A DNA stretch of 64,000 bases from Candidatus Woesearchaeota archaeon (GCA_043812195.1 JBDRML010000016.1:32001-96000); one strand, 5' to 3'; counted from the stretch's first letter, positions 30,466 through 61,902 are shown. A program made the numbers and translations. Notes: generated by a model not told the origin, from the letters alone.

Positions 30466-30537
30466 ATGAAATCAGTAATGGCTTATTGTTTTTAAATTAT
30501 TTGATTTCAGTGGTGGGATTTCGACCTAAACATAGGA

Positions 30538-30652
30538 CGCCGCGACTGGGATTCGAACCCAGATATCCTTTCGGAAACAGGTTTTCAAGACTTACGCTTC
30601 AAAGATATTAAATCACTTGAATCTGCGCGATACCAGATTACGCGATCGCGGC
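30538..30652 (-). tRNA. tRNA-Ser(TGA) with 31-nt intron at 29/30 (intron 30592-30622)
   Basis: Acceptor GCCGCGA/TCGCGGC, discriminator G, long variable arm, T-arm CTGGG-TTCGAAT-CCCAG; intron removal gives CAGGT-CTTGAAA-ACCTG. Confidence 0.88.
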
Positions 30653-31229
30653 ATAAACTTTGTAAAACCATGTTGCTTTCAGCCATATTTAAATTTAACT
30701 GATATGAAAAATATTTGTTTTTTTGTATAACAGCTTTAACAGGTTTATTAAATCCCAATAAACTTTCAGTTATCTTGCCTATATCCAATAATAAACCCCT
30801 ACTAGCCATATGAAATAATACTCTCCCTCTTTTATTTATCACTCTATCTGTTAATAATAATCCAAGGAAAAAATATTTTTTAACTTTCCTACATGAATTC
30901 AATATTAAATTCGGAACCCTTACAATAGATGCTTTCTTTCCTGAAGGAATATTCAATTCATTTACTAAATAATCAAACATTGATCTTGAGTATTTAAAAA
31001 ATTCATAGATAGTCTTTCTATTTGACCTAGTTCTATTTATTATCTTTCCTTTCTCACCAAATAAATCAAAGTATAAATTATAAAATAAGTCAACTAAAGA
31101 TTAGAAGTATTATAGAACATAATTGAATAAGTAAGATAACCAGATCCATTCATTACGGTTAGAAATACTACCATCTCCGATTACCATCCCCAAAAAAAGA
31201 GCTAATTTATTAATATTTATATCTTCCAC
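30585..31229 (-). pseudogene. Frameshifted two-motif LAGLIDADG endonuclease gene
   Basis: GTG start at 31229; motif 1 LALFLGMVIGDG; two frameshifts; motif 2 YFFLGLLLTD(R); 3' end runs into tRNA-Ser. Confidence 0.75.
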
Positions 31230-57081: not shown

Positions 57082-57212
57082 GGGCCCATAGCTCAACCTG
57101 AAAAGACATAGTTAAGTCTAATCTTTGGTTAAGGAGAGCACCAGATTTTCAGGTGAAACTGAAGTCCCAGGTCAGATATCTGGCCATCCGGGTTCAAATC
57201 CCGGTGGGCCCA
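57082..57212 (+). tRNA. tRNA-Phe(GAA) with three introns (57101-57132, 57145-57157, 57165-57177)
   Basis: Spliced 73-nt cloverleaf: GGGCCCA/TGGGCCC, GCTC/GAGC, CCAGA-CTGAAGA-TCTGG, CCGGG-TTCAAAT-CCCGG; each intron has a perfect 4-bp BHB central helix. Confidence 0.88.
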
Positions 57213-57269
57213 CTTTTTTAAAACTTTCCAAAATATTTATAAACAACTAAAAACAAAATTAAGATATAA

Positions 57270-59233: not shown

Positions 59234-59638
59234 ATGAAAGCTTACGATATTAAAACAGACGAAGTAATTAAAAGAACAGCTGAAAAGCTAAAGAAAATAG
59301 AAGAAATAAAAGCACCAGAATGGTCTAAATTTGTAAAAACTAGTCCGGCAAGAGAAAGGCCTCCAGTAGAATTAGATTGGTGGTATGCAAGAACAGCATC
59401 AATTCTAAGAAAAATCCAATTATTAGGCCCAATAGGGACAAGTAAATTAAGTAAAAAATATGGTGGAAAAAAGAATAGAGGCCACAAACCAGAAAAATTC
59501 TTTAGAGGTTCAACTAAAATAATCAGAACAATATTACAACAATTAGAAAAAGCAGGTTTAACAGAACAAGCTCAAAAAGGAGCGCATAAAGGAAGAATAG
59601 CAACCAAAAAAGGATTATCATTATTAAACACAAAATAA
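59234..59638 (+). CDS. rps19e: Ribosomal protein S19e
   Basis: PEWSKFVKT, DWWYAR.ASILRK and IIRTILQQLE motifs. Confidence 0.95.
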   Translation: MKAYDIKTDEVIKRTAEKLKKIEEIKAPEWSKFVKTSPARERPPVELDWWYARTASILRKIQLLGPIGTSKLSKKYGGKKNRGHKPEKFFRGSTKIIRTILQQLEKAGLTEQAQKGAHKGRIATKKGLSLLNTK

Positions 59639-59639
59639 A

Positions 59640-59813
59640 ATGGCCAGAAACATATCTACAGGTAAAAAAACCAGATTAGCAAAAAAAGGTAAACAAACTA
59701 GATGGGCACCTTTTTGGGTAGTTCCAAAAGCAGCAGGAGTTGGGAAAAAAATTCATCCATCAAGATTCACAGCAAAAAAAAGAAGCTGGAGAAGAACTAA
59801 AACTAAAGCATAA
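59640..59813 (+). CDS. rpl39e: Ribosomal protein L39e (57 aa, not in ORF track)
   Basis: MARNISTGKKTRLAK...QTRWAPFWV...RSWRRTK, located between S19e and L31e. Confidence 0.88.
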   Translation: MARNISTGKKTRLAKKGKQTRWAPFWVVPKAAGVGKKIHPSRFTAKKRSWRRTKTKA

Positions 59814-60493: not shown

Positions 60494-61449
60494 ATGGAAG
60501 AAAAATTCCCATACGAAAAAATAAAAAGAAAAACATTGATAAAAAGAAAGGCAATTACAAACCCCAAATTTAAAGAAAATAGAAATCCAATTGAATATGG
60601 AATTGTAAACATAAACAAATTCAGTGGTCCTACGAGCCACAATACTACAGACTACATGAAAAAAATATTGCACATTAAAAAAGCTGGTCATTCCGGGACC
60701 TTAGTGCTATAAAACAAGGAAATCCTGGTGTAACTGGCACTTTAGTAATAGCAATAAATGATGCAACAAGAGTAGTTCAAACCCTATTAAAAGGTGGAAA
60801 AGAATATATTTGCTTAATGCATATCCATAAACCAGTAGAAGAAAAAACAATAAGAGAAGTTATGGATAAATTCATAGGAAGCTTAACACAAAAGCCACCA
60901 GTAAGATCAGCAGTTAAAAGGGTAGAAAGACAAAGAGATATTTATTATTTAAATATTTTAGAAATAGATAAACAAGATGTTCTTTTCAAAGTTGGATGTC
61001 AAGCAGGAACTTACATCAGAAAACTATGTGACCAAATTGGAAGGAAATTGGGAACAGGTGCAAACATGACTCAATTAGTAAGAACAAGAGTAGGGCCTTT
61101 TAATTATAAAGACTCAAAAACACTTCACGAAATAAAAGATGCATTTGAAGAAAAAAAATTAGATAAAATTATTCTCCCAGTAGAATCAGCAATTCAACAC
61201 TTACCAAAGATTTGGATAACAGACACAACAGTAGATCCTGTTTGTCATGGTTCAGATTTAGCAATTCCAGGAATTTCAAAACTAGAATCAAACATAAATG
61301 AAGATGACACAGTTGCAATCCTAACATTAAAAGATGAATTAGTCTGTTTAGGCATAGCAAAACTAACAGACAAAAAAATAATGGAAAATGAAAAAGGAAT
61401 TGCAGTAAAAACAAAAAAAGTTTTCATGATAAGAGGAACTTACAAATAA
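60494..61449 (+). CDS. cbf5: Pseudouridine synthase Cbf5, join(60494..60704,60722..61449), 312 aa after splicing
   Basis: GAGGAGGT RBS; NKFSGPTSH; GHSGTL-D-PGVTG restored by removing 17 nt; KEYIC, GTYIRKLC; PUA domain. Confidence 0.9.
60705..60721 (+). other. Predicted 17-nt BHB-type mRNA intron
   Basis: CCGGGA-CCTT-AG^T...AAGG-AA^A-TCCTGG; contains the in-frame TAA stop. Confidence 0.85.
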
Positions 61450-61551
61450 ATTAATAAAATTCAACTTCTCCGTGGTTACACAATGTTTAAATAAGAAAAA
61501 ACTCAAAATTAAATTAACATAGTTATAAAATTCAAAAGGAGGTAAAACTTA

Positions 61552-61902
61552 ATGGCAAAAAAAGGTAGAACTCCATGGGACAAATGGTCATTTAATCTGG
61601 CATGGATATTAGCAGTCCTTTTAGCATTAGGTGGATCATTCGGATTAGCATTTACATCCGGAAGTTGGTGGCCACTAATATTGTTAATCTTAGGACTGGT
61701 AGTTGGTTTCATGCATTCATTAAAAGACGTTACACCAATGGTATTACTAGTATTAGCAGTTGCTATATTTGGAACATCAAGCCTAGCATTAATTCCATGG
61801 CTCGGAATTTTCGTTGCAACCGCAATAGCTCAGTTTATGGCATTCTTAACCCCTGCAGCATTAGTAATAGCACTAAGAAAGGTCTTTGAGATAATGAAAT
61901 AA
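61552..61902 (+). CDS. Small multi-TM membrane protein
   Basis: GGAGGT RBS, about 4 hydrophobic helices, T-rich terminator. Confidence 0.7.
   Translation: MAKKGRTPWDKWSFNLAWILAVLLALGGSFGLAFTSGSWWPLILLILGLVVGFMHSLKDVTPMVLLVLAVAIFGTSSLALIPWLGIFVATAIAQFMAFLTPAALVIALRKVFEIMK

Follow-up and report, generated by a model that had tools for sequence, protein, structure and literature searches.

The window analysed here, a stretch of 64,000 nucleotides from a Candidatus Woesearchaeota archaeon, carries a gene for the RNA-modifying enzyme Cbf5, a TruB-family pseudouridine synthase, that is broken into two reading frames, and the question that it raises is whether the gene is dead or whether its message is mended by RNA splicing. 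The 17 nt at 60705–60721 are very probably an archaeal endonuclease-type (BHB) intron of the cbf5 pre-mRNA, with predicted splicing. This reading is strongly supported by comparison with relatives, and cleavage and ligation are predicted from the DNA.

All parts of the gene lie on the forward strand. Frame 1 runs from ATG 60494, which we read as the start codon, with a GGAGG-like site just upstream, to a TAA at 60710–60712; frame 2 is open from before 60721, across the break, to TAA 61447–61449. Exon 1 (60494–60704, ATG to the first base, G, of the catalytic Asp codon) corresponds to positions 15–72 of the 322 in the Cbf5 model TIGR00425 and has a weak Pfam match to DKCLD, and exon 2 (60722–61449, from the AT of the Asp codon to the terminal TAA) corresponds to positions 70–318, scores 283.6 bits against a cut-off of 238.15, and contains TruB_N, TruB_C_2 and PUA domains. 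The halves end and start in the same profile region and so abut on one Cbf5 profile, which identifies them, as judged from these matches, as belonging to a single Cbf5. A TIGR00425 profile search of the 938-kb genome returned no further cbf5 matches beyond the two halves; the genome is about 90% complete, so that an intact second copy could lie in the missing part. The 17-nt insert separates the first base of the catalytic Asp codon from the second, and when 60494–60704 and 60722–61449 are joined by script the result is a 313-codon frame with a single terminal stop, in which G 60704 and AT 60722–60723 rebuild the Asp codon and the GTL-D-PG motif is back. Only after this removal does the catalytic Asp stand in its G-T-L-D-P motif, which is uninterrupted in intronless relatives. 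The original prediction had described the two frames and the letters of the motif exactly as they are found, had held that excising 60705–60721 restores both the frame and the catalytic Asp, as the joined frame bears out, and had placed a stop for the unspliced mRNA within the intron, where the TAA lies.

The neighbours of cbf5 are genes for S19e, a 57-residue ORF, L31e, a 116-residue ORF and class I lysyl-tRNA synthetase (Pfam). The 57-residue basic ORF (59640–59813, +), upstream of cbf5, is without a Pfam match at 1e-5 and looks like ribosomal protein L39e from its position and composition; the 116-residue hydrophobic ORF downstream (61552–61902, +) is likewise without a match at 1e-5.

The fold at the break

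Inspection of 60693–60728 gives the letters CCGGGA (60693–60698), CCTT (60699–60702), AGT (60703–60705), AAGG (60716–60719), AAA (60720–60722) and TCCTGG (60723–60728). In the RNAfold minimum-energy fold of 60685–60736 (−15.0 kcal/mol, z = −2.36, with 5 of 200 shuffles as good), CCGGGA and TCCTGG form an outer helix in the exons, CCTT and AAGG form a central helix between exon and intron, and AAA is the 3′ bulge. Pairing is complete in both helices (6/6 outer, 4/4 central), and all ten pairs have ensemble probabilities of 0.94–1.0 (0.98–1.0 for the outer helix). The exon strand of the central helix comprises bases 2–3 of a Thr codon and bases 1–2 of a Leu codon, and the 3′ strand of the outer helix comprises the T of the Asp codon, the Pro codon and the GG of the Gly codon. 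The predicted cuts fall after the second nucleotide of each triplet, at 60704/60705 and 60721/60722. The inner helix is absent in the window, where the sole possible closing pair, G60706–C60715, has a probability of 0.003, so that the 5′ cut site sits in a 13-nt loop, unlike the closed 3-nt bulge of most relatives. The original prediction of a BHB thus stands for the outer helix, the central helix and the AAA bulge, all of which appear in the minimum-energy fold, but not for the AGT bulge; with no closing pair on its intron side, the motif is a relaxed helix-bulge-helix-loop and not a full BHB.

By our estimate, which assumes uniform base composition, the chance of one such fold is about 6e-4 per site and register. 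A scan of the genome for an outer helix of at least 5/6 pairs and a central helix of 4/4, flanked on either side by an open frame of 60 codons or more, gave 2708 matches, mostly ordinary gene boundaries of a compact AT-rich genome; it was too unspecific to single out further spliced genes, which the original prediction had suspected among apparent pseudogenes. Such a fold on its own is therefore no rarity, and the weight of the case comes from its position and from the relatives.

Contigs from two other groundwater metagenome studies span 60573–61500 and 60600–61500 and contain the 17 nt gap-free. They differ from the window by five substitutions (60645, 60759, 60783, 60808 and 60854), none of them within 60693–60728, and by no indels. 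No RNA run was found among the matches to the stretch. Of two metatranscriptome runs from the study behind one of these DNA matches, one gave nothing and the other a single 40-nt piece, at 59455–59494 and outside cbf5, and the two are uninformative on expression.

The junction in other archaea

Of 240 genomes of the order searched with the Cbf5 model, 214 gave a match. A junction pattern matched 38 of the 240, with no match for the reversed-pattern control, and eleven more intron-bearing genomes were recognized from split or stop-bearing matches (G168, G156, G120, G116, G125, G061, G209, G177, G233, G110 and G122). Two of the pattern matches were rejected as intronless chance matches, G058 by a sequence check and G175 by its matched string. 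At least 47 of the 214 cbf5-bearing genomes of the order thus have an insert of 13–29 nt, in every case directly after the first base of the Asp codon; this count is a lower bound, genomes with partial or missing cbf5 matches lying outside it. Roughly a fifth of the species in one DPANN order accordingly share the cbf5 intron at an identical nucleotide position. With a general pattern, 15 of 87 sampled genomes of the order matched, and one of 314 sampled from other orders of the class (G319). In one genome of the order, G086, the same junction with a 26-nt intron is seen twice, on contigs C60 and C106, at or near the contig ends, and this is probably an assembly duplicate.

Across these junctions the base pairing is maintained by compensatory change. 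Forty-six distinct junctions (45 from the order, together with G319) were anchored by reading frame, between the last base of the Leu codon and the first of the Pro codon, without use of an RNA fold and with pairs counted by our own script; the central helix is paired 4/4 in all 46, compared with a mean of 15.2 and a maximum of 25 when partners are shuffled (2000 shuffles). The helix is CCTT/AAGG (exon/intron) in 16 junctions, CTCT/AGAG in 10, CGTT/AACG in six, CACT/AGTG in five and CATT/AATG in one, the remainder being wobble variants. On the exon strand two synonymous positions vary and the intron strand follows: pair 2 is C-G in 18 junctions, T-A in 11, A-T in seven, G-C in six and a wobble in three, such that all four Watson-Crick pair types occur at one position, and pair 3 is T-A in 26 and C-G in 19. 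All 45 sequences of the order have A-N-A as their 3′ bulge. The exon codons of intron-bearing genes are, from their codon counts, adapted to the outer helix, with GGG for Gly in 40 of 46 junctions (1 of 40 genes without the intron), CCY for Pro in 44 of 46 (13 of 40) and GAT for Asp in 46 of 46 (31 of 40). The inner helix is more variable, with at least three pairs (3–5) in 21 of the 46 junctions and 0–1 pairs in 14, the window included, and the insert lengths of the relatives fall in all three classes modulo 3.

Beyond the order, species-representative genomes were scanned with a stricter pattern (GGG, a His codon and 12–27 nt), which gave at least 119 loci, at least 108 of them cbf5 junctions with the insert at the same site; the other 11 of the 119 listed were not counted, being seven bacterial chance matches and four archaeal records that fail the motif test. 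Among the matches listed, the central helix is fully paired in 105 of the 108 junctions, and by record title these are from Bathyarchaeia/-ota (66), Woesearchaeota (15), 'Thermoproteota' (5), unclassified archaea (5), Nanoarchaeota/-ia (3), Aenigmatarchaeota (3), Nitrososphaerota (2), Pelearchaeum (2), Thermoprotei (2), Caldarchaeum (2), Heimdallarchaeota (1), Methanosarcinales (1) and 'Thermoproteati' (1). In five such genomes from five differently titled groups the Cbf5 model is interrupted at about profile position 70. Among 301 sampled genomes of the class that surrounds one Bathyarchaeia genome, 93 matched the general pattern and four the reversed control, a few of the matched strings looking chance-like; taken as raw pattern matches, these figures suggest that about three in ten of the sampled genomes of this class probably carry the cbf5 Asp-codon intron. 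One codon has been struck in lineages that separated very early, for which age, transfer or repeated insertion may be the explanation, and such evolutionary causes are now testable on hundreds of independent sequences. There is also a consequence for annotation: gene callers will give cbf5 as broken or split in hundreds of genomes, and marker-gene sets are affected.

An intron of this kind has been known from Crenarchaeota, with Watanabe 2002 and Yoshinari 2006 among the references cited for it. Yokobori 2009 (PMC2738675) places it directly after the first base of the catalytic Asp codon, in agreement with the original prediction, with the cut between the second and third bulge residues and the intron confirmed by cDNA of several species; the same paper confines it to Desulfurococcales and Sulfolobales. 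Schwarz 2020 (PMC7714728) speaks of 'only one example ... in crenarchaeota', with a non-crenarchaeal lineage name beside cbf5 and intron in a footnote only, and Hayne 2023 (PMC10485636) gives the same limit. Our literature search, which covered subscription journals thinly, found no report of a cbf5 intron outside Crenarchaeota (DPANN, Bathyarchaeota, Caldiarchaeum, Korarchaeota, Aigarchaeota), and an earlier mention is possible. The kind of intron is already known and what is new is its host range, which is far wider than the two crenarchaeal orders named in the literature.

The intron in the window and the crenarchaeal introns, as the latter are described in Yokobori 2009 (PMC2738675), share the gene, the insertion point, a BHB-type fold of exon and intron, the predicted cut and a patchy presence, and cutting after the second bulge nucleotide by the rule given there yields the in-frame junction. 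They differ in that the host is a DPANN archaeon of Woesearchaeota type, and in length, the intron being 17 nt here and 13–29 nt in the order. Most relatives in the order have a regular BHB with an inner helix, whereas most crenarchaeal ones are unconventional according to the same source, and crenarchaeal splicing is cDNA-confirmed whereas that of the window intron is predicted from DNA. The BHB intron in the 5′ UTR of HVO_1309 of Haloferax volcanii (Schwarz 2020, PMC7714728; Hayne 2023, PMC10485636) also lies in an mRNA processed by the tRNA splicing endonuclease, but in an untranslated leader and not inside a codon, and the gene and lineage are unrelated. Archaeal pre-tRNA BHB introns, including those at non-canonical positions, share with the cbf5 junctions the predicted enzymes, the outer helix, the 4-bp central helix and the 3-nt bulges, although the cbf5 substrate is an mRNA; here codons constrain one strand of each exon-side helix, so that pairing is kept through synonymous sites. 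In the unconventional mRNA splicing of HAC1/XBP1 in eukaryotes, for which regulation is demonstrated, a short intron likewise keeps the active protein from being made until both an endonuclease and an RNA ligase have acted, but the endonuclease (Ire1) and the RNA motif are different, and no homology is implied.

Stop codons, splicing enzymes and other explanations

For an analysis of stop codons the junctions from the order and from the global scan were pooled, giving 134 distinct junctions among the matches listed. Fifty-three introns of this pooled set have a length divisible by three, and all 53 contain a stop in the read-through frame, compared with 13 and nine in the other two frames and with a mean of 19.6 (maximum 30) for shuffled introns (1000 shuffles); the sequences are related, so that these counts overstate independence. 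Frame-shifting introns have an intron-internal stop in the read frame in 65 of 81 cases, among the same matches. Patterns blind to stops yielded the global-scan junctions and the majority of those from the order; the eleven order genomes recognized from split or stop-bearing matches were chosen partly for stops. We infer that the stops reflect selection against a full-length enzyme with a disrupted active site made from unspliced message, and together the frame-specific stops and the adapted exon codons suggest that the unspliced state is under selection. The original prediction had proposed that splicing gates the enzyme; the stop-codon pattern lends this support and makes it plausible rather than established. 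The gate reading offers a concrete hypothesis on the question of function that Schwarz 2020 (PMC7714728) calls open.

The proposed course of events is as follows. Exon bases on both flanks would pair to give the outer helix of the transcript, and four exon bases in the Thr and Leu codons would pair with the 3′ end of the intron to give the central helix. EndA would cut each of the two triplets beside the central helix after its second nucleotide, and RtcB would join the exons and so rebuild the GAT codon of the catalytic aspartate. Unspliced message would be translated only as far as the intron TAA, giving a 72-residue fragment and no full-length enzyme.

Both predicted enzymes are encoded uninterrupted, RtcB as a 461-residue open frame (480.7 bits) and EndA, on contig C3 of the genome, as a protein of 181 residues with PF02778 and PF01974. 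EndA aligns gap-free with the homotetrameric enzyme of Methanocaldococcus jannaschii and is without the insert found after the conserved R-V-Y segment in both the Nanoarchaeum alpha subunit and the ARMAN-2 enzyme, and from this alignment it looks like the strict homotetrameric type. The genome yielded no second EndA-like sequence at E up to 10, although at about 90% completeness a second subunit could be missed. The broad-specificity splicing system that had been postulated for this genome is less well supported in view of its EndA. According to Kaneta 2018, relaxed motifs are cut only by heterotetrameric or three-unit enzymes, or by those with a specific loop, and the loop-bearing homotetramers of DPANN accompany disrupted tRNA genes; Yokobori 2009 (PMC2738675) and Hayne 2023 (PMC10485636) link cbf5 splicing to a hetero-oligomeric endonuclease, a link that a single homotetramer-like EndA does not share. 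We infer that EndA accepts the open 5′ side of the window motif, and this open side is the main mechanistic doubt. With introns allowed, ARAGORN finds 29 tRNA genes in the genome, 16 of them with introns. Two of the intron-bearing genes are in the window, Ser(TGA) at 30535–30653 (−) and Thr(GGT) at 57082–57213 (+), the latter with a 36-nt insert and an unusual additional arm of 22 nt, possibly a second intron; four tRNA introns had been claimed for the window. Default ARAGORN and Rfam (gathering threshold or E up to 0.1) find no tRNA in the 64 kb.

The most substantial of the other explanations, though an improbable one, is that a 17-nt insertion killed cbf5 and that the fold is fortuitous. 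The reduced genomes of DPANN would fit such a loss, as would the imperfect 5′ side of the motif and the uniqueness of the insert within its own family, none of whose 24 other genomes matched the junction pattern. Against it stand the interruption of the same site in 47 genomes of the order and in at least 108 verified records, with covarying helices, and the state of the gene itself, both halves of which are otherwise intact and score as Cbf5. The variant strain with five nearby substitutions keeps the 36-nt motif unchanged, and no second cbf5 was found in the genome. Its presence in two independent assemblies also means that the insert is not an assembly error, so that a sequencing or assembly artefact, for which one could cite a source that is a metagenome bin in 45 contigs, scarcely merits consideration.

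Two further possibilities would leave the RNA uncut, and we regard both as highly unlikely. Ribosomes might cross the break by programmed frameshift or bypass, since the frames differ by the equivalent of one base and frame 2 is open across the insert; such a shift would put Asn in place of the catalytic Asp and add six residues, however, and it accounts neither for relatives whose inserts fall in all three length classes, the in-frame ones always with a stop, nor for base pairing that is conserved without a slippery site. Split genes occur in DPANN, and the halves might be made as separate polypeptides that assemble, like those of Nanoarchaeum; here it is the catalytic codon itself that is split, and the first listed in-frame start of the second half, ATG 60817, lies past the active-site motif. 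A spliced BHB-type intron is the reading that we retain.

History of the intron and other insertions in cbf5

A maximum-likelihood tree was built from exon-2 proteins of 200–300 residues (75 rows, 43 of them intron-bearing), a length filter that left out intein-bearing and truncated cbf5 genes. The window groups within its own family, in a 21-row clade (SH-aLRT 97) whose 20 other members are all intronless. Intron state requires at least 14 changes on the tree, at least seven of them forced by well-supported branches, compared with a mean of 24.4 for shuffled labels; the rows are enriched for intron-bearers, and these counts are therefore not rates. The junction pattern had no match in the other 24 genomes of the family. 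Most likely, to go by this distribution, the intron was gained in the lineage of the window and is not a family heirloom; with intronless family relatives the insert is young here, and selection has had less time to test it.

The best match to the 44 nt beside the junction, 37 of 44, is in G067, which belongs to another family and has a similar intron, whereas the mean for the window's own family is 31.3 and the remainder of the gene is closest to its own family. The difference between 37 and 31.3 is small, and gives a weak hint that the junction region may have come from another family by patch transfer. We tentatively put forward, as a composite that is itself more doubtful than probable, that the cbf5 Asp-codon intron is recurrently gained and possibly patch-transferred among DPANN, TACK and Asgard archaea and kept as a gate, such that EndA/RtcB capacity sets the Cbf5 level, and that in this genome it would be a recent arrival from a different family in the order, accompanied by some 40 nt of adjoining exon sequence. 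Were this true, Cbf5 and guide-RNA-dependent rRNA pseudouridylation would be made only in proportion to EndA/RtcB capacity.

Other intervening sequences are also found in cbf5 of this order. Six genomes (G006, G012, G055, G079, G121 and G152) have inteins there (e.g. L084:1-1500), as in-frame inserts of about 1.5 kb at about profile position 170 within ORFs of 820–875 residues; the one insert of the six checked by Pfam, that of G121, contains Intein_splicing and LAGLIDADG_3. Inteins and RNA introns are thus hosted by the same gene, but the inteins are removed at the protein level, are about 500 residues long, and lie at position 170 or so and not at the Asp codon. Among 115 ORFs of at least 90 residues flanking the intron-bearing loci of the order, Pfam identifies no free-standing homing endonuclease, G061 apart. 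In that genome (L089:2354-3856, −) cbf5 has a 21-nt Asp-site intron and a second interruption near profile positions 24–47, where a 501-residue frame contains LAGLIDADG_3 and an HTH domain followed by the DKCLD start of Cbf5. The cbf5 of G039 (L035) is broken in the same N-terminal region and is without the Asp-site intron, and breaks in the cbf5 matches of G050 (L090, L096) and G217 (L102, L108) fall elsewhere on the profile, at 109/110 and about 242–251.
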